DNA of 64,000 nt from positions 44,518 to 108,517 of IMG/VR virus record IMGVR_UViG_3300013383_000020. The stretch is one strand, 5' to 3'. The notes beneath the pieces were generated by a model. That model searched no databases, was not told the DNA's origin, and saw only the letters and a list, made by a program, of their open reading frames with translations. Positions within the stretch are counted from its first letter, which is position 1. Each line of letters opens with the position of its first letter. This DNA comes from a virus (lineage: Duplodnaviria; Caudoviricetes). This document shows positions 4,454 through 54,123 of this stretch, piece by piece. The position numbers were made by a program, and so were the translations under genes.

Positions 4454-4612
4454 ATAATAATCTGAGTGCTGATATGAAGCATTCGACTTGTTCTATACTT
4501 CTCAAGTCAAAAGAAGTAGTGTATAATAATAAAGGTAATCCAAAATCGAAAGAGATTGGATAGAGGTTGGGGGTTTACAGCCAGTTACTTATGGTAGCAA
4601 ATGGAAAATAAT

Positions 4613-4640
4613 TTCCAATGAATCCAAGTTTTCTTATTAA
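4613..4640. repeat. dif-like dyad site (atgaat-ccaagt-tttctt)
   Basis: Strict consensus, ttcca outer arm; upstream of recombinase operon. Confidence 0.8.
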
Positions 4641-4668
4641 AGCAGAGAAAATATAGAAATAAGTATTA

Positions 4669-4696
4669 GAAGCAGAAATCAACTGCTTCTTTTTTA
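4669..4696 (+). terminator. Rho-independent terminator
   Basis: gaagcag...ctgcttc plus T tract. Confidence 0.6.
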
Positions 4697-4710
4697 TTAC
4701 AGAAAATGAG

Positions 4711-5010
4711 GTGATGAATATGTGCAGATATAAAAATGGAAATCCAAAAAGAACTTCTCAGTTTTTGTGCTTACATTGTATGAAAATAAACCAATTATCA
4801 GGAATACAGAGAGGAGGACACCAAAGGGAGAAATATCATATAAAAGATCTTTTATGTATTAATAAGGAATGCAAGAATCTTCCTTATACAAAAAATTTAG
4901 AGATCAGATGGTGTGATACATACGAAGAAGTGTATGAAAAGGCAATACAAATAAGAAGGCATTATTATTCAGACAAAATAGAGAATAATACAAATAGAAA
5001 GGTGTGTTGA
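4711..5010 (+). CDS. small Zn-ribbon-like protein
   Basis: CLHC...HIKDLLC. Confidence 0.65.
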   Translation: MMNMCRYKNGNPKRTSQFLCLHCMKINQLSGIQRGGHQREKYHIKDLLCINKECKNLPYTKNLEIRWCDTYEEVYEKAIQIRRHYYSDKIENNTNRKVC

Positions 5011-5015
5011 TAGAT

Positions 5016-5288
5016 ATGGAATATGAAATAACTAATATTGGAAGCTCAGAAATTAAAGATATTCACCATATTGGAATTAATTATGATGGCAACTATTACA
5101 GTGTAATTTTTGGCAAATATATTAATGGTGGATTCTTTAGTATTCCAAACTGGAATTGTGGTGGTGAACTGGCGAACTTTAGCGATGTGTTTTGGAATAC
5201 CGAATCTATTTATAGAGCGTTAAAGAGAAAGAAAACAGCAAGAGTAATAGCACAAGCTATAGCTGACTATATGAAGGAGTGTGATTGA
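5016..5288 (+). CDS. hypothetical protein
   Basis: ORF coupled to recombinase. Confidence 0.7.
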   Translation: MEYEITNIGSSEIKDIHHIGINYDGNYYSVIFGKYINGGFFSIPNWNCGGELANFSDVFWNTESIYRALKRKKTARVIAQAIADYMKECD

Positions 5289-5289
5289 T

Positions 5290-6321
5290 ATGGCACAGAC
5301 AAGAGACTACGCAACAAAGAAAAAGGGTAAAACTAAGGGTTATCCATTTTGGAATATGGAAGATATTAAGGGAATGATTGATTATTTTCGGAACAATCAA
5401 TTATGGAATGATTATTTGAAATTTATGTTGTTATTTTTATTTGGGAGAAGAGTAGGAGACACATTAGATATGGTGTGGTCTGATATTTTTTATCCAAATG
5501 GAACAATAAAGGATGAGATTAGAACAATTGAGGAACAAAAGACTGGGAAATACAATATCATATATATTTCACCATATGCAAAGCAGGTTATTAAAGAATA
5601 TCTACAGATAACAGGCATCAATCCATTATATGATTTAAATGACTATATTTTTCCATATGAGTTGAAGTATGAATGGAGAAAAATGGAGAACGATGATTTT
5701 TTTCATGAAACAGAATCTACAAATTATTCTGATAATGAAGCATTAGAAATGATTAACAGGTTTGTAGAGTTATACAACAAAGATTATAGCGAAGATAGAA
5801 TTAAAAAGATTTTAAATGAGTGGAGAAAGCATCAAAAAGAATTTAAAACTTTAGGAGAATATATATATAAAGAAGTAATTTTTAAAGATATTTCAAAATG
5901 GCAAATTGGAGCATTTGATAAAATTTTTAAAAAAGCAGTGGAATTTAACAAAATTCAATACAAGGTGACGATTCACAGTATAAGGCGTTCCTTTGGATAT
6001 TATAGTAAAGTAATTCATCCACATGATATGTTATGTTTGGAAACTTTACAGAATATTTTTGGACACAGTGACACACAAACAACTATGCATTATATTGGTT
6101 TATCTGAAGAAAGAGAAAGAATGTATTATACCGATATTGGAGATTTTTTAAATGGTGTATCAAATGGGAATTATGATCTAAAGAAGAATAGCCCCGTAAT
6201 AACAATAAAAGAACAAGACTTAAGAAAGATTTTATTAAAAGCCATTAAACTAAACTCTAATGATGCAGCGATATCTTTAAATCAAATATTAGACGAAATT
6301 GATGAGGTGAAATTAGAATGA
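5290..6321 (+). CDS. tyrosine recombinase (Xer/resolvase-like, no obvious arm-binding domain)
   Basis: GRRVGD, KTGK, HSIRRSF, GHSDTQTTMHY give the R-K-H-R-H-Y catalytic set. Confidence 0.92.
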   Translation: MAQTRDYATKKKGKTKGYPFWNMEDIKGMIDYFRNNQLWNDYLKFMLLFLFGRRVGDTLDMVWSDIFYPNGTIKDEIRTIEEQKTGKYNIIYISPYAKQVIKEYLQITGINPLYDLNDYIFPYELKYEWRKMENDDFFHETESTNYSDNEALEMINRFVELYNKDYSEDRIKKILNEWRKHQKEFKTLGEYIYKEVIFKDISKWQIGAFDKIFKKAVEFNKIQYKVTIHSIRRSFGYYSKVIHPHDMLCLETLQNIFGHSDTQTTMHYIGLSEERERMYYTDIGDFLNGVSNGNYDLKKNSPVITIKEQDLRKILLKAIKLNSNDAAISLNQILDEIDEVKLE

Positions 6322-6353
6322 AACAAATGAGATGAGAGTAATATAAATATGTA

Positions 6354-6383
6354 AGGACGACACAGATTATTTCGTGTCGTCCT
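6354..6383. terminator. hairpin between convergent genes
   Basis: aggacgacac...gtgtcgtcct. Confidence 0.65.
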
Positions 6384-6579
6384 TGGTATCAAAAATGAGT
6401 ATATCATTAGGGGTGCAATTTAAAACATGACATAGACTTTCTAGGGTGTCAAAATAAATTCGTTCAACATTGCCCGTATATAAATTACAAGCTGCTTGAT
6501 AACCGATTTTTAATTCCTTCGACAATTGATTTCGATTCATACCTTTTGAATCAACCAAAGGTTTGATATTTAATTTCAT
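6367..6579 (-). CDS. Cro/CI (XRE) HTH regulator
   Basis: GMNRNQLSKEL...TLESLCHVLNCTPNDIL. Confidence 0.9.
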   Translation of the reverse strand: MKLNIKPLVDSKGMNRNQLSKELKIGYQAACNLYTGNVERIYFDTLESLCHVLNCTPNDILIFDTKDDTK

Positions 6580-6641
6580 GCGTATACCTCCTTAACAATA
6601 TGTAGTTTAGCATATAATCTTAACAAAATAAATATGTTTTC

Positions 6642-6683
6642 AACATTATATGCTTGACAATATAATGTTAATAGTGTATAGTA
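6642..6683 (+). promoter_or_regulatory. sigma-A promoter with operator-like inverted repeat
   Basis: ttgaca-17-tatagt; aacattata/tataatgtt flank the -35. Confidence 0.65.
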
Positions 6684-6741
6684 TGAAATATCAAAGGTAA
6701 TCCACGAGTACATAAATACAAAAGAGAGGAGGAACGTACAT

Positions 6742-7125
6742 ATGGATTTACAGAGATACGATGTTATAAAAGCAAAAATCAAATATCAAGGCGAAGGATC
6801 AGTCCAGACTAAAGAACGTCCATATGTTATTGTGTCAAATCCGATAGGAATTAAACATGCAACTATAATCACAGTGATGCCTTTGACTTCTAAAATAAAG
6901 AAAATGAATATGCCTGTTCATGGTTGCATTAATGCAGACGATGATAATGGTTTAACAGAGTATTCTATGGTGCTCGGAGAACAAATTATAACAATATCCA
7001 AGGACGAAGTTATTGAAAGACTTGGAAATGTTACTGATCGCAATGAACGAAAACTTATAGATAAGGTTTGTTTCAATGGTTTGTTTTTTGGAACTGAATA
7101 TAGATTAGAGGGGGCGAGAGTGTAA
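6742..7125 (+). CDS. PemK/MazF-family endoribonuclease
   Basis: GSVQTKERPYVIVSN...PLTS...EQIITISK. Confidence 0.85.
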   Translation: MDLQRYDVIKAKIKYQGEGSVQTKERPYVIVSNPIGIKHATIITVMPLTSKIKKMNMPVHGCINADDDNGLTEYSMVLGEQIITISKDEVIERLGNVTDRNERKLIDKVCFNGLFFGTEYRLEGARV

Positions 7126-7379
7126 TGTATGTGAGTAAAGAAAAGGCGAAACAAATAATTGATGAAACTCCTGGTATGATATGGGTTGATTCTTTTAATG
7201 GAATAACTTTTATTCATACAAGACCAAGACAAATAACTGTTGATGAGGGAAAGAGAATAATTAATAAGGCAAGCACAGTTGATTATTTCGATAATGATTT
7301 TTTTGGCTTGCTTTCATTAGAGGGAGTACAGGAATATATGATTCATAACATAAAGTTCCCTCACCATATGTCCGAATAA
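7125..7379 (+). CDS. hypothetical protein
   Basis: Coupled to PemK (TAATG). Confidence 0.65.
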   Translation: MYVSKEKAKQIIDETPGMIWVDSFNGITFIHTRPRQITVDEGKRIINKASTVDYFDNDFFGLLSLEGVQEYMIHNIKFPHHMSE

Positions 7380-7631: not shown

Positions 7632-7691
7632 GTTTCTGAGCATTTCTGCTATTAAGTCCATTTTTGCAATTAAATATGGAGAATAAAGTAT

Positions 7692-7763
7692 TGGGCATTT
7701 GCCAAGTGGTAAGGCGCTGAATTTTGATTTCAGTATTCGTAGGTTCGAATCCTACATGCTCAG
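7692..7763 (+). tRNA. tRNA-Gln(TTG), variant anticodon loop
   Basis: Cloverleaf; ctgaa-ttttgat-ttcag; ggttcgaatcc. Confidence 0.9.
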
Positions 7764-8031
7764 TTTGTTTTGGCAAAACTTCATAAGGTGGAATCTTATG
7801 AATGAGCAATAAGGAGATGTAAAACAACTTTTATGAATATTCCCATCGCCTTATTTCATTGATAATTGCGCGCAAATCAATGACAGAACATAATTTGTGA
7901 TAGGTATCTTTAGCATAAGACTTAAAAGCGGAGTGTAACAGCACACAAATAAACAAAACAGGGAGTCGCGCCATCACATTTTTTACATTTTACATTTTAC
8001 TTTTACGTCTTCGAGGCTTACTCGGAGACCC

Positions 8032-8959: not shown

Positions 8960-11158
8960 ATGAAAAAAGAGATATTACGTGAAAAATTGCAAAATCTTTC
9001 ATCTGAGCAATTAGGATTGATCAATACATATTGTGAAAACGATATGTCAAAGTTAAAAAAGATCAGTTATAACGCATTTTTTAGGTACGGCATTCCATCA
9101 TATGAACATGATGAACTGTACGATGATGCGATGAACGTTTTGATGGAGAGTGTCGTGACATTTGATTCATCTCAAGGTGCAAATTTTAATACCTATCTGA
9201 CTAACAATATTAAAAAGTCAACTATAGATTGGTATAGGGACAATTATCAACGAGGTAAAAGAAGAAATTTATTAACTGATAAAAAGGGAAGAATATTAAA
9301 ATTTGATGATGACGGAAATATAACAGATGAAAAAAATGGAAAACCAGTTATTATTCCAAATAGCTCATTTGATGCACCTGCTGACGATGATAATAGTTTG
9401 GCTGACAAACTTGCGTCAGATTTTGACATTGAACACGAAAGTGAATTTGATTTTGAAATAGATCAAAAAGTGGAAGACTTTTTGAATACATTACCTAAAG
9501 TACAAAAAAATATTTTACTTTTATTAATGCAGCATGAAAGTAAAACAGATATTAAACGGCAGTTAGGTATCTCTGATAGAGAATATAATAGTGCGATTAA
9601 GTCAATTAATATGAATAAAGGACTTTCCGCATTCTCAAAGAACAAAAATGATGGAAATTATGAAGTGGAGGTAAAGGATATGGCAGACAGAATTATTGAA
9701 ATTGGTGAATCAGAAAACTACAGAATGGACAAGTATAGCATGTATGCATTATTACAGGATAAGAAAAACGGAGATATGAACTGTAATTACATTTTGCAGC
9801 GTGAACCTTTTCAGTGGAGCACAGAAGAGGCTAATAGATATTTTTGCCGTATTCTTAGTAATCTTCCAATTCCTGAGATTATCATTTGTGAGCAGAAGAA
9901 GAAAGGATTGACAATTTCTCATTTGATTGATGGATTACAAAGACTTTCCTATGCTGAAGCTTTCAAAGAAAATCGTATCAAAATTGGTTCAGCAGGAGCA
10001 GAAAGACATTTAATCCAGTATAGAGATTATGTTTTAGACGAAAATGGTAATCGTATATTGGATGAAGACGGACTTCCTGAATATGAAATGAAAGTGTTCG
10101 ATGTGATTGGAAAGTATTATAAGGATTTACCAGATGAACTGAAAAAGAGATTCAATAATTTTAATATTAATGTAACCAAGTTCTTTGATTGTACAGACGA
10201 ACAGATTGCAGATCATATTCGTGATTATAATAATCACGCAAGTATGAATAAGGAACAGAGTGGCTTGCTTAATGTATCTGCTGACATTGCCGTACAGATT
10301 AAGAAGATTTCACAGAAAAATTCTTTCTTCAAGAATTGTGGTAAGTTTACAGGTAATAATTCAATCAAGGGAAAATGTGAAAGAGTTGTTGTTGAATCAC
10401 TTATGTTGTTGTTTTTCCGTGAATCATGGAGAGCAAACCTGGATTCAATTTATAAGTTTGTTAATGAGAATGCATCAGAACAGCAGTTTATGAAGCTTAA
10501 TTCACAGTTCAACAGACTGGAATTAGCATTAGGCGATAATAATAAAAAATTATCAGAGGTATTATTTACTCCAACTACGATGCCAATGTGGATTACAGTG
10601 TTTGATAAATTTACTACATATAATATGGAAGATTCTCGTTTTGTTGACTTTTTAAATGCTTACAATACAGAACTCAAGGATAAAGATATCAATGGTGTAT
10701 CAATGGCAGACTTTAAAGATCAGCAAACAAAGAAAAAGACAACTATTACAGGTAAGATTGATTTACTTGTACAACTTATGAACGAATTTTTACATATCGA
10801 ACAGACAACGGAGAATAAGGAAGTAGAAGATAGCACCACAGTAGCTTCTGAAAAGGATTTCGTACATAGTGTAATTGAGGCAGATATCACAGACGAAGAT
10901 ATGGAGGATTATAAGGATTATATTGAAGATACAGTAAGAATGTCGTCACCATTATATCATCAGGCATATCCAGCTTTGTTAGCAATGGCTGCATATGTGT
11001 ATAGCTGTGATAAAGATGATGAATTTAATCAGTTTATTGATGGATATGCTAATAATACATATGAGTTTACAACAGATCAGAATGTTAATTACAATCAGAT
11101 GAAACATGCCTTTCAGGAGTGGCTCGACAAAAATAAATCAAAGGAGGTAGCTGCATAA
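8960..11158 (+). CDS. sigma-70-like factor fused to DUF262 (ParB-like) domain
   Basis: Region 2-like DELYDDAMNVLMESVVTFDSSQGANFNTY; region 4-like HTH; QREPFQW...PIPEII...IDGLQRL. Confidence 0.8.
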   Translation: MKKEILREKLQNLSSEQLGLINTYCENDMSKLKKISYNAFFRYGIPSYEHDELYDDAMNVLMESVVTFDSSQGANFNTYLTNNIKKSTIDWYRDNYQRGKRRNLLTDKKGRILKFDDDGNITDEKNGKPVIIPNSSFDAPADDDNSLADKLASDFDIEHESEFDFEIDQKVEDFLNTLPKVQKNILLLLMQHESKTDIKRQLGISDREYNSAIKSINMNKGLSAFSKNKNDGNYEVEVKDMADRIIEIGESENYRMDKYSMYALLQDKKNGDMNCNYILQREPFQWSTEEANRYFCRILSNLPIPEIIICEQKKKGLTISHLIDGLQRLSYAEAFKENRIKIGSAGAERHLIQYRDYVLDENGNRILDEDGLPEYEMKVFDVIGKYYKDLPDELKKRFNNFNINVTKFFDCTDEQIADHIRDYNNHASMNKEQSGLLNVSADIAVQIKKISQKNSFFKNCGKFTGNNSIKGKCERVVVESLMLLFFRESWRANLDSIYKFVNENASEQQFMKLNSQFNRLELALGDNNKKLSEVLFTPTTMPMWITVFDKFTTYNMEDSRFVDFLNAYNTELKDKDINGVSMADFKDQQTKKKTTITGKIDLLVQLMNEFLHIEQTTENKEVEDSTTVASEKDFVHSVIEADITDEDMEDYKDYIEDTVRMSSPLYHQAYPALLAMAAYVYSCDKDDEFNQFIDGYANNTYEFTTDQNVNYNQMKHAFQEWLDKNKSKEVAA

Positions 11159-11555: not shown

Positions 11556-12021
11556 TAAAAATAACAGGAATTATATTTCGTGAAATTATCTATCTTCTAT
11601 ACATAGTCAGTTCTGACATTCTAATATCTTGTATCTTATAACTCGATATATAATTCCTGATTATATAGATAGCGTATAAATGAAAGGCGGTGAGAATATG
11701 GGTATTGGATGTAGACCAATTGGTAAGTTTAAAAGTGAGATGGTCAAGATCGAAAATCAGATTTCCAAGGAAAAGGCAGCACATGTTGTAAAGAAGAACA
11801 ATAAGAATAAGAAGGGAGAATAATATTTATGGAGAAGAAAACAGTTACATATCAGTTGCACACAAGAAAGTTGGATCGTGAGGTCGCACATAACAAGATG
11901 AAGAAGGCTGGTGTGATTCAGCTAAATAAGGACAAAGGAAAGGGTAGTTTCTTCGCTAATCATTGGCGTGAGTATGTGTAAGAATTGTGATGAACTTATT
12001 GTATTGTAAGTTCATCTGTAA

Positions 12022-12093
12022 TGGGCTATCGCCAAGCGGTAAGGCACAGGACTTTGACTCCTGCATTCGTTGGTTCGAATCCAACTAGCCCAG
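12022..12093 (+). tRNA. tRNA-Gln(TTG)
   Basis: cagga-ctttgac-tcctg; canonical cloverleaf. Confidence 0.95.
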
Positions 12094-12097
12094 TTAT

Positions 12098-12170
12098 GTG
12101 CCATTAGCTCAGTTGGTAGAGCACTCGACTTTTAATCGAGTTGTCACGAGTTCGAGTCTCGTATGGCACA
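12098..12170 (+). tRNA. tRNA-Lys(TTT)
   Basis: ctcga-cttttaa-tcgag; canonical cloverleaf. Confidence 0.95.
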
Positions 12171-12198
12171 TTAAAAAATTAAAAAGGAGTATAAAGCT

Positions 12199-12576
12199 AT
12201 GAGAACAATAGACAACAAATTTGAAATTGGAGAAGAATGTTATACCTATGCAAGAGAGAATTTAGCCATTATTTGTCCTGTATGTAAAGGAACTAAGAAG
12301 ATTCTCTACAACAGATACGAAATTCCATGCAAACAGTGTAATGTATCTGGAAAGATTATAGGTAAACAGACTGTAGTTGCACCACATAAGGTTAAGATTA
12401 GAAGAATTATTGCTAGTATTTGGAACGATGTGACGACAATTAAATACAAAGTTGATTCTGTTGGAGAATATATCAATGTGAGAAACAGAGGAGAAACTTC
12501 TTTATTTAAGACATTAGAAGAGTGTGAACAAAAATGTAAAGAAATTAATCAGGGCGAGAGTAGTGCTGCATTTTAG
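12199..12576 (+). CDS. hypothetical protein with CxxCxG Zn motif
   Basis: CPVCKG...CKQC. Confidence 0.75.
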   Translation: MRTIDNKFEIGEECYTYARENLAIICPVCKGTKKILYNRYEIPCKQCNVSGKIIGKQTVVAPHKVKIRRIIASIWNDVTTIKYKVDSVGEYINVRNRGETSLFKTLEECEQKCKEINQGESSAAF

Positions 12577-16235: not shown

Positions 16236-16278
16236 ACAGAGAATAATACAATAGGCAATTAAAAATAAAGCGACATAT

Positions 16279-16322
16279 ACAATATATAGTATCTGATAAT
16301 TACAACAAATACTATATATTGT
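16279..16322. promoter_or_regulatory. Tandem NrdR-box-like pair
   Basis: acaatatatagt and actatatattgt, 32 bp apart. Confidence 0.7.
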
Positions 16323-16334
16323 ATAAAAATCAAG

Positions 16335-16362
16335 TCCGAAGGAAAGCGGAATTTCTTGTGGC
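16335..16362. repeat. dif-like dyad site (aggaaa-gcggaa-tttctt)
   Basis: Strict consensus. Confidence 0.85.
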
Positions 16363-16375
16363 GAAAGGAGAGAAT

Positions 16376-18727: not shown

Positions 18728-18986
18728 AAATTTCATTATTGTAGGGCTGTTCAATTCAGATTGACAACGGCATAAACGTGGATACTAGTTGGTGATTTAT
18801 GTGTCAGTGGGGCTGTACTAGGTTCGAACCCTTTATATGGTGTAAGTGGGCATAACAATAATGAATTAAGTTGAAAATTTTGATAATTGAAAATAAAAGG
18901 TAGTCCTAAAGGTCATTGACAATAGGATAGAGGTTACGGTTCTTAACCATCTGGCTTAAAAATAAGGCAGTAAACGGTTTTATAAA

Positions 18987-24694: not shown

Positions 24695-24698
24695 CAAG

Positions 24699-34930: not shown

Positions 34931-34937
34931 ATAATAT

Positions 34938-34981
34938 ACTATATATAGTGATTACAAAATACTATAAGCACTATATATAGT
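34938..34981. promoter_or_regulatory. Tandem NrdR-box-like pair
   Basis: actatatatagt twice, 32 bp apart. Confidence 0.7.
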
Positions 34982-34993
34982 ATGAAAATTAAG

Positions 34994-35021
34994 ACCGAAG
35001 GAAACTGACATTTCTTGGTGC
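34994..35021. repeat. dif-like dyad site (aggaaa-ctgaca-tttctt)
   Basis: Strict consensus. Confidence 0.85.
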
Positions 35022-35043
35022 GATTTTAAAGGAGAATTGTAGA

Positions 35044-52450: not shown

Positions 52451-54123
52451 GTTTGAAACAAAGAAGTAGAGGTTATCCGAGAAAATAGAGCATAACAAAT
52501 AAACCATCCCAGGGGGTGGCTTGAAAAATTAAATATTAACGCAACACCTAATCAGGAAACTGCTAAAGGCTTATCCTTTATGATGTAGCCCCGTTGTTTC
52601 AAAAGATTAAGTGCCTGTGAAGTGGAAAGAACTTTTTCCTCTTTTACAGGACGGGATTCAAGAAAACCTTCTGGAGTATATGGCTTTAAATCTGAAAGTA
52701 TGTGCCAGATAGCGGTCAGGATCATACGACAGACAGCAATGATGGCTTTCTTGTGACCACGGCGTGCTTTGATACGCTTGTAGCGGTTAGTAAATTCGGA
52801 ATGCTTTTTCGATTTGATTAAAGCATTTGCAACTTGCACCAGAACTGGTTTAAAATAAGAACCGGCACGGGAAATCCGAGTGGATTTGATTTTTTGATTG
52901 CTTTGATCGTTACGAGGACAGCATCCTGCCCATGAGACGAGGTGTTTCGCTGTGGGGAAGACAGACATATCACCACCAATCTCTGAAAGCACTTGAACAG
53001 CAGTCATCGGATTTTTATCGAATCCGGGAACAGTCCTTATTAAGTTTAAAGCAGCCTCATATTTATCACTGAGACGAAGGATTTCCTGTTCTATTTCTGA
53101 AATGTGCCTGTTCAGTTCATCGATGTGATCAAGACACTGTCTGAGTTTAACCGCTTGTTCTTTTGAAATGGCACCATCAACAGCAGCTTGTATTTCTTCG
53201 ATAGGAGTTTTACATCTGCCATCCACAAAAGGTGACACATCAAATGTTTCCCCGGGGTGTTGCAAAATCTGTTCTGTAATAGAACGGGAAGATTTACCAA
53301 ATACATCAGAAAAGACATCGTCAAGTTTTAGATTGGATACGGTAAGACAATTCTGAGCACGATTTTTTTCACCAGTGATCATGCAGGTGAGTTTATATCG
53401 GTATCTTACAAGATCTCGAAGCTCTCTGATGTCAGCAGGTGGAATGAAAGAAGGTTTCACCATTCCACACATGTAAAGGTCACAAATCCATTTCGCATCC
53501 TTGCGGTCGGTCTTGTTCCCTTTCATTGGTTTTGTGTATTTGGGATGAGAAAGAGTAACCCATAGATTGTGTTGCTCTAAAATGTTAAAAACAGGGATCC
53601 AGTACTTACCGGTAGATTCCATACAGACATCTGTACAGTTATATTTTGCAAGCCAATCACACAGCTCATTCAATCCTTTAGTAAAGGAAGAAAAGCGAGC
53701 TTGCTTATATTCAGTACGATTATTGGAATCTGTGATACCGATGCAGGCATAGATCCATGTTTTGTGGACGTCAAGTCCACAGCAGTTAAATTTTAAGATT
53801 TTAAAAGACAAAAAAATAACCTCCTGAAATTTATAGTTATAAAACTGACAGTGACTGGTCATCCGGCGAGATCGAGTCGACTTCGGAAGAGATAAGTTTA
53901 CGGGCTATTGTTATGCGCCACTCATTGATGCCTTAACGGATGACCGACAACATATACATATACGAGGTCGCCGCTATACAGCCCCGCCACTCACCTCCAC
54001 GTGTTCTGTAGTATGCCAGTCTTATAACATAATAATATCAGAAGAAATATAAATTAGATAGCGAAAGCTAATGCACATGTTTCATGACGCATTGGTGTCT
54101 TTCGCAGAAAGACGGGTAATACA
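52451..54123 (-). mobile_element. IS110-family element (ends approximate)
   Basis: Interrupts kinase ORF; no terminal inverted repeats. Confidence 0.85.
52552..53811 (-). CDS. IS110 transposase/recombinase
   Basis: GLDVHK, MESTG, KTDRKDA, SWAGCCP..DQS. Confidence 0.93.
   Translation of the reverse strand: MSFKILKFNCCGLDVHKTWIYACIGITDSNNRTEYKQARFSSFTKGLNELCDWLAKYNCTDVCMESTGKYWIPVFNILEQHNLWVTLSHPKYTKPMKGNKTDRKDAKWICDLYMCGMVKPSFIPPADIRELRDLVRYRYKLTCMITGEKNRAQNCLTVSNLKLDDVFSDVFGKSSRSITEQILQHPGETFDVSPFVDGRCKTPIEEIQAAVDGAISKEQAVKLRQCLDHIDELNRHISEIEQEILRLSDKYEAALNLIRTVPGFDKNPMTAVQVLSEIGGDMSVFPTAKHLVSWAGCCPRNDQSNQKIKSTRISRAGSYFKPVLVQVANALIKSKKHSEFTNRYKRIKARRGHKKAIIAVCRMILTAIWHILSDLKPYTPEGFLESRPVKEEKVLSTSQALNLLKQRGYIIKDKPLAVS

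Follow-up and report, generated by a model that had tools for sequence, protein, structure and literature searches.

A recombinase slot with a zinc-ribbon gene and an array of numbered dyad sites in temperate gut phages of about 150 kb

We describe a three-gene recombinase operon, and the recombination sites with which it may be connected, in a window of 64,000 nucleotides (nt) corresponding to bases 44518-108517 of a 108.5-kb phage record in IMG/VR (IMGVR_UViG_3300013383_000020), which was judged to be 65% complete. The phage family is one of temperate gut phages of about 150 kb, and the relatives used for comparison are contigs of about 150-165 kb (out of more than 90 matching contigs), some of which carry terminal repeats and others a provirus flag. 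The window has a G+C content of 33% and contains early, accessory and replication genes, including genes for Bro/Ant-like and T5orf172 proteins, MazF, a sigma-like protein, RNA ligase, DnaB, RecJ and DNA ligase. The record containing the window is designated G000 and its relatives G008, G010, G016 and so on, and recombinases were surveyed in 40 genomes. In a check of sequencing runs, at most 22% of the sampled words were found in any run, no RNA run was among those listed, and the comparison was made via contigs only; the single NCBI contig with a homologue of the recombinase studied here is a metagenome assembly. The genomic slot occupied by this recombinase is one of two candidate enzymes for the array of sites described below.

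The three open reading frames (ORFs) have the same direction and nearly abut, and they encode a zinc-ribbon protein, a DUF6618 protein and the tyrosine recombinase Rec1 (Table 1). Their likely starts were chosen on the basis of the Shine-Dalgarno position and the N-termini of homologues, and residue numbers of Rec1 follow the 346-aa frame (ORF from 5281), the likely protein of 343 amino acids (aa) starting at 5290. The original prediction, made from the sequence alone, had placed a strict dyad directly upstream of this operon. The dyad is present, as ATGAAT-ccaagt-TTTCTT, 85 nt before the first gene and 5 nt to the right of position 4613 given in that prediction; a conserved hairpin followed by a T run, which lies between the dyad and the operon, had been overlooked. 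This hairpin reads as a terminator- or attenuator-like operon leader, and another hairpin beyond the recombinase gene is likely the end of the operon. Directly 5' of the dyad is a structured element of three hairpins, with similar copies some 190-260 nt ahead of the first base of the window and at 18894-18977 (the three were compared side by side, and two of them aligned). Every copy ends about 10-15 nt ahead of a dyad site, and the element may be the mark of a special 'complex' class of sites or a leader RNA. Its pattern is AAGGTAR-TCC..GGA-TAGAGGTT.., and the third copy has compensatory changes in the stem. A search of the leader, including this element, against Rfam gave nothing at or near the gathering score.

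Table 1. Features of the recombinase operon and of the second recombinase gene (window positions unless otherwise indicated)
Feature	Position	Strand	Basis
Sigma-70-like promoter candidate, TTCTCA-17-TATAAT	4499..4527	+	Consensus scan, 10/12 matches; weak, as promoter-like matches in the region are no commoner than in shuffles
Structured three-hairpin element (77 nt), directly 5' of the dyad	4530..4606	+	RNA fold of 4530-4715, z = -3.9
Numbered dyad recombination site, spacer ccaagt, one T-type and one purine-type arm	4618..4635	.	Strict pattern match
Conserved 8-7-8 hairpin AGAAGCAG-N7-CTGCTTCT (4668-4690) and T run	4668..4696	+	Terminator scan
Zinc-ribbon protein, 96 aa (ORF listed from 4711)	4720..5010	+	CxxC...Cx4C, then C-terminal helix
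DUF6618 protein, 90 aa (ORF listed from 5004)	5017..5288	+	Pfam PF20323, 139.4 bits against a cut-off of 27, full length
Rec1 tyrosine recombinase, 343 aa (ORF listed from 5281)	5290..6321	+	Pfam PF00589, 48.5 bits against a cut-off of 27.1
Hairpin with 12-bp stem between the convergent recombinase and helix-turn-helix genes, just past the recombinase stop at 6321	6353..6384	.	Terminator scan, minus-strand match
Rec2, Xer-like recombinase	G000:C1:22032-23066, outside the window	-	Full-length match to XerC, XerA and XerD models; core-binding and catalytic domains

Rec1 belongs to a phage-borne family of tyrosine recombinases that have no core-binding domain. Its active site is intact, as had been predicted: in an alignment of 36 homologues no variation is seen at R57, K87/K90, H232, R235 and Y271, and H262 is conserved in at least 90% of the sequences. 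Also kept in this alignment are a basic N-terminal tail (YATKKKGKT..YPFW), a C-terminal tail of about 65 aa, and the long insertion that had been noticed between the K hairpin and the HxxR motif, a helical insert of about 95 aa (about residues 126-222) by which the PF00589 match is split into two stretches. All of the 316 homologues have lengths of 325-364 aa. The lack of an arm-binding domain noticed previously holds, and the core-binding domain is missing too. The protein begins straight with the catalytic domain, the catalytic Arg being residue 57, and a Pfam search of Rec1 gave no match to a SAM-like domain. When the AF2 model (pLDDT 87) was aligned with known structures by VIA, the catalytic domains of XerA, HP1, lambda, VchIntIA, Tn1549 and P2 were effectively tied at Z of 13-15; because all of these alignments, of 142-193 residues, begin only at model residue 16-19, which is paired with target residues 100-175, no core-binding domain precedes the catalytic one. 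The insert matched generic helical bundles only (Z about 5).

The scores of Rec1 against the NCBIfam XerA, XerC and XerD equivalogs (38.5, 28.6 and 25.6, against 220, 335 and 330) come from the C-terminal third alone. Concerning the integron integrases, which had been mentioned for an insertion in the same interval, the models TIGR02249 and PRK15417 gave 22.5 against 265 and 21.6 against 435, with only residues 211-273, downstream of the insert, aligned; these scores are far below the cut-offs, and the VchIntIA structure is tied with non-integron enzymes; kinship with integron integrases is not supported. The NCBIfam models NF007370 and NF007371 for FimB/FimE-type invertases did not match Rec1 at E <= 0.01, an absence that leaves distant kinship possible.

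G000 has two tyrosine recombinases and no serine recombinase, and three classes of recombinases were distinguished in the 40 genomes: a terminal Tn916-like integrase (in most genomes), an Xer-like recombinase in a slot that we call X (in every genome), and the recombinase of a mid-genome slot that we call M. The terminal integrase of the relatives has 383-446 aa and a Tn916 Integrase_DNA domain and lies at the contig end; the Rec1 gene is internal to the phage, as originally described. On the basis of this position, the missing arm-binding domain and the separate terminal integrase of the relatives, we rejected Rec1 as a secondary lysogeny integrase. The X slot has the allelic types Rec2, X2, X3 and X4, and the Xer-like gene of G011 is truncated to a 271-aa frame. 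The M slot has the layout of terminator-like hairpin, zinc-ribbon gene (optional), DUF6618 gene (optional) and tyrosine recombinase gene, with hairpin, zinc-ribbon gene and recombinase gene occurring together in 28 of the 40 genomes; gene orientation around it is constant among 29 loci. The Rec1 family (M1a, M1b and M1c, with mutual identities of 36-56%) fills this slot in 17 genomes, G000 included.

The original prediction had regarded Rec1 as the best candidate enzyme for the sites and had held that phages lacking it should lack the sites as well. This expectation was literally contradicted: 12 near-complete relatives without a match to the Rec1 family have 14-27 strict sites, against 0-3 in controls, and the mean number of strict sites does not differ between genomes with M1 (20.7) and those with M2 (23.4), an unrelated two-domain recombinase. 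In these 12 relatives M2 takes exactly this position, downstream of the same hairpin and zinc-ribbon gene, and therefore the slot survives as a candidate, while the Rec1 family as such does not; the Xer-like rival is equally present. The stem of the hairpin at 4668-4690 is kept ahead of the module in every genome examined, with M1a, M1b, M1c or M2 and with the zinc-ribbon gene present or absent.

The dyad upstream of the operon belongs to a large array. The motif ADGAAW-N6-WTTCHT has 13 occurrences in the window, where 1.25 would be expected, and this number was never reached in 100 shuffles; with a weight matrix, 20-25 sites were found in G000 at thresholds giving 0.2-1.2 in shuffles. The array comprises about 30-50 sites per genome, which are spread over more than 100 kb and are mostly direct. 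They are double-strand dyads of 18-28 bp with 6-bp spacers, located for the most part between genes and in many cases immediately 5' of a ribosome-binding site. The information of the sites is concentrated in the 6 bp beside the spacer and one outer C/G, as would suit an enzyme that reads its site mainly through the catalytic domain. Two further dyads ahead of the operon, TGGAAA-N4-TTTCCA (4602-4617) and the stem of the leader hairpin (4668-4690), were tried as the array motif and rejected, as neither is repeated in the window. A blind search of the window for perfect short-spacer dyads and k-mers yielded ribosome-binding-site-like words only. In phages of the G037 type, the dyads CTGW-N4-WCAG and TTGC-N10-GCAA are enriched, and we did not accept them as an alternative array because they have no common flanks. 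Paired ACWATATATWGT boxes were observed at 2264-2306, 16275-16364 and 34934-35023 (repeat families D1 and D3), with a conserved linker and a dyad site after two of the three.

The sites recombine at their spacers, because an inversion, colinear numbered spacers and breaks of homology at the sites are all observed. Spacers are unique inside each genome and colinear between genomes, 10-25 being shared per pair of genomes against about 0.4-1.2 by chance. When same-number sites were compared between genomes, the arms were 86% identical and the 60-nt flanks 42-45%, and in 19 of 99 pairs one flank is kept and the other lost; at the spacer aattgc, one right half is joined to many different left halves. 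The 300-bp segment between the sites at 24696 and 24995 is inverted in G000 relative to G010, and at the junctions the half-sites are swapped exactly around the common spacer ccaatc/gattgg. This segment holds the N-terminal 59 codons of a gene, which are contiguous with the remainder of the gene in G010.

The dyad at 4618 had been proposed to be the operon's own site. It has the arm consensus and intergenic position of the array members, and G008 and G024 carry its spacer ccaagt at the syntenic place. In relatives, the ccaagt site is separated from the recombinase gene downstream by 2.0-2.9 kb, an interval that holds up to four further numbered sites, and the site nearest the operon has the spacer aattgc; the site at 4618 is therefore a numbered member of the array and not the operon's own. 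One metagenome contig follows the window as far as 4633, then has 1201 nt of different sequence, and rejoins it at 4665.

We compared the type of the arms with the gene content of each genome. Neither the M type nor the X type predicts site sequence, and phages with M1 and those with M2 agree in both arm consensus and site numbers. The zinc-ribbon gene does track arm type: the 28 genomes that possess it have mostly purine-type (R-type) arms, RGAAW..WTTCY, and the six array-bearing genomes without it (G016, G019, G029, G030, G032 and G041) have mostly T-type arms, TGAAW..WTTCA. The ratio TT/(TT+RR) is 0.08-0.44 in the former and 0.61-0.89 in the latter, with no overlap among the 34 genomes (Mann-Whitney p 1.6e-4, uncorrected and with kinship ignored). 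G008 and G016 give a close comparison, as their M1b recombinases are 77% identical, the hairpin is the same, 12 site numbers are shared and G016 cleanly lacks the zinc-ribbon gene; of the 24 arms that they have in common, 9 carry A beside GAA in G008 and T or C at this base in G016. A comparison of three R-type with three T-type genomes yielded about a dozen genes that distinguish the two groups, four of which have a match in G000 too. Among the separating genes, the zinc-ribbon gene alone is coupled to a recombinase, and the others with a Pfam match are RNA-repair enzymes.

Two of the genomes without the zinc-ribbon gene have further peculiarities. In G029 (via L080), the Rec1-like and Xer-like matches each contain one in-frame TAA, and the array of minimal cores is the richest found, 80 against 16 in the control. 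G041 (via L114) is a close relative, with a RecJ-like protein 89% identical, and has a 406-aa M2-like recombinase; its array has arms of TTGAAA-N6-TTTCAA and no purine-type sites, and some spacers look like standard numbers shifted by one base.

The two small genes had been suggested to be accessory factors, and this suggestion fares differently for each of them. The zinc-ribbon gene adjoins the slot recombinase gene in 28 of the 40 genomes and is translationally coupled to M1 or M2, and this tight coupling, together with its relation to arm type, speaks for it. The DUF6618 gene is optional, being present in 9 of the 40 genomes, yet it is always directly upstream of the slot recombinase gene, whether M1a, M1b, M1c or M2. 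Searches with the zinc-ribbon protein revealed 38 homologues, none with a Pfam family, unnamed viral clusters only in the protein atlas (0.82-0.83), and a single weak match in PHROGs (E = 0.006). Its model consists of four strands and a helix, and the best structural matches, ribosomal zinc ribbons of the bL33 type, are uninformative at Z of about 3 (<=3.3); a complex prediction with Rec1, run without controls, was uninformative as well (score 0.00). In the literature searched, we found no description of the recombinase module or of DUF6618. In G030 (L164:3367-4389), a more distant array-bearing relative, a different Cys-rich ORF of 61 aa lies directly before a 277-aa Rec1-like recombinase, and therefore the design of a small metal-binding protein with a short recombinase may be a wider one.

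We infer that the M slot, rather than the Xer-like recombinase, provides the enzyme of the array, because the zinc-ribbon gene of its operon is the only factor found to track site type. That the slot is the recombination module of the array and the zinc-ribbon protein its arm-recognition cofactor is in our judgement evenly balanced, correlation being the basis. The slot enzyme would make Cre/lox-like crossovers at GAAW-N6-WTTC dyads; the catalytic gene of the slot is interchangeable between the Rec1 family (M1) and the unrelated two-domain M2. Because each position has a unique 6-bp spacer, sites would pair only with those of the same number; such pairing with a co-infecting or resident phage genome would result in exact exchange of a cassette, and pairing with an inverted same-number copy in one genome would form an on/off inversion switch. 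The zinc-ribbon protein would help to read the arm base beside GAA, through whatever contact it may make with DNA or with Rec1. The whole proposal, that of a two-part recombinase in which the zinc-ribbon protein sets half-site preference (purine or T beside GAA) for the interchangeable, unrelated M1 and M2, and which uses about 30-50 numbered lox-like sites genome-wide for swapping accessory-gene cassettes between related 150-kb gut phages and for flipping gene starts on and off, is a doubtful one as it stands.

Several observations weigh against assigning the array to the slot and its zinc-ribbon gene. M1 and M2 have no detectable sequence similarity at E <= 1e-3, yet their phages share arm consensus and site numbers, a surprising agreement if reading the arms is the task of the slot enzyme. 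The X slot is filled in every genome, and the two-domain build of its product is a textbook fit for an 11-6-11 site. The association of the zinc-ribbon gene with arm type spans about three independent lineages, with phylogeny and linkage uncorrected, and may reflect linkage inside a mosaic block. G029 has no zinc-ribbon gene and yet has 21 R-type sites against 5 in the control, and some excess of R-type sites is seen also in G035 and G036.

The best surviving alternative is that Rec2 and the allelic types X2-X4 act on the numbered dyads and Rec1 has a separate job. The full-length matches of Rec2 to the XerC, XerA and XerD models, its core-binding and catalytic domains, the presence of its class in every relative, and the Xer-like geometry of short arms with a 6-bp spacer all argue for this explanation. 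However, X3 is common to G010 with R-type arms and G041 with T-type arms (68% identity), and X4 occurs both in G011 and G026 (R-type) and in G016 and G019 (T-type). In addition, G037, which has no clear array, retains a relative of X2 (48% identity); no dyad site adjoins the Rec2 gene, and a search within 1.5 kb of it found no dif-like dyad. The Xer-like class is also as polymorphic as the M slot and thus fails the simple covariation test as well. We consider it rather unlikely, though a rival to be reckoned with, that the Xer-like enzymes work the array.

It is less probable still that Rec1 acts on one dedicated nearby target, either the hairpin dyad at 4668-4690 or a site for multimer resolution or a local switch, as in Cre/loxP or FimB/fimS, with the upstream dyad being coincidental. 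FimB and FimE are tyrosine recombinases without a core-binding domain and act on one adjacent switch, and the hairpin dyad is kept ahead of the module throughout the genomes examined, both of which favor a dedicated target. The hairpin, however, is unchanged when M1 is replaced by the unrelated M2 and therefore goes with the leader rather than with any one enzyme; its T run gives it the look of a terminator, no pair of inverted repeats frames a nearby segment, and the constant gene orientation at the 29 slot loci is against a local switch. Least probable, and hardly to be expected, is that a host recombinase (Xer or other) works the array and the phage recombinases serve lysogeny and resolution only: the genomes with the same array have no one type of phage recombinase in common, and a shared host enzyme would explain the shared site consensus, but arm type shifts between close relatives (RecJ-like proteins 89-94% identical to that of the window) in step with a phage gene.

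Returning to the slot as the candidate module, we compared it and the array with known systems. Cre/loxP, with the heterospecific lox and FRT sites, is similar in having simple dyads with an asymmetric spacer whose identity sets pairing, inversion by inverted pairs, exchange by matched pairs and a phage-borne tyrosine recombinase. It differs in that the phage spacer is 6 bp instead of 8 bp, the conserved arm is about 6-9 bp, there are many natural sites each with its own spacer, and Rec1 has no core-binding domain; Cre and Rec1 are alike at the level of fold only (VIA, Z 12.3, 11% identity). The Xer/dif systems (XerC/D, XerA, XerH and XerS) share the arrangement of arm, 6 bp and arm, and XerA is the top structural match of the Rec1 catalytic domain (Z 15.1) and its best NCBIfam match. 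Rec1, in contrast, is far under the cut-offs of these families and lacks a core-binding domain, the sites are many and not one, and the truly Xer-like protein is Rec2.

In the R64 shufflon, Rci likewise acts on many short sites (sfx), its C-terminal extension matters and rearrangement diversifies genes, which may offer an analogy; its sites, however, are inverted, lie in one locus and have a common spacer, whereas the phage sites, each with a unique spacer, are mostly direct and distributed across more than 100 kb. IntI/attC resembles the present system in the idea of a cassette array and in an extra element between the K hairpin and HxxR, and VchIntIA is the top Foldseek match of Rec1. Its catalytic core gives Z 14.3, tied with XerA, HP1 and lambda, and the Rec1 insert is one of about 95 aa of helices that matched generic bundles only; moreover, the phage sites are plain double-strand dyads and not folded attC, with inversion junctions at the spacer. 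FimB and FimE have no N-terminal core-binding domain either, and inversion switches occur within the array; Rec1 exceeds them in length by 150 aa, with the insert and the tail, no single adjacent switch was found, and the invertase models match Rec2 weakly. In the Xer1/vpma and HvsR/vrs systems of Mycoplasma, sites are present in the 5' leader of each gene of a set, one tyrosine recombinase is encoded adjacently, and one promoter is shuffled among paralogous surface genes. The position of sites just ahead of genes and the adjacent recombinase may be regarded as analogous, but the phage sites separate unrelated accessory genes across the genome. The lysogeny integrases of lambda and Tn916 differ from Rec1, which has neither an arm-binding domain nor a position at a prophage end.

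Other features of the window were also recorded. Directly after the recombinase slot, in most relatives as well as here, there is a block (6367-7379) composed of a Cro/C1-type helix-turn-helix gene on the minus strand (6367-6579), a MazF/PemK-like toxin gene (6742-7125) and an overlapping ORF of 84 aa (7125-7379), and the promoter region shared by the divergent helix-turn-helix and toxin genes contains an imperfect palindrome with 48-nt arms (6583-6680). A gene at 52552-53862 on the minus strand encodes a 436-aa transposase of the IS110 family with DEDD_Tnp_IS110 and Transposase_20 domains and probably represents an insertion sequence within the phage; a gene resembling it is located about 8 kb upstream of the Rec1 homologue on the NCBI metagenome contig (L159). 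The 732-aa protein encoded at 8960-11158 has a sigma-factor-like N-terminus and appears to be fused in this phage, because its relatives (L159 and G008) have separate Sigma70_r2-like and GmrSD_N (DUF262) proteins. Two tRNA-like repeats of 78 nt, 77% alike, are present at 7688-7765 and 12018-12095, and the depth of metagenome contigs has a sharp maximum at about 11900-12275, as a conserved tRNA would produce.

If the module of the slot is the enzyme of the array, it would be a natural phage-borne equivalent of recombinase-mediated cassette exchange. A zinc-ribbon cofactor that retunes the half-site choice of a tyrosine recombinase without a core-binding domain appears to be undescribed in the literature searched, and such a cofactor could serve recombinase engineering. 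For the phages themselves, the proposed system, if true, would provide a mechanism both for the reshuffling of mosaic accessory regions in large gut phages, with exchanges exactly at gene boundaries, and for the phase-switching of phage genes.

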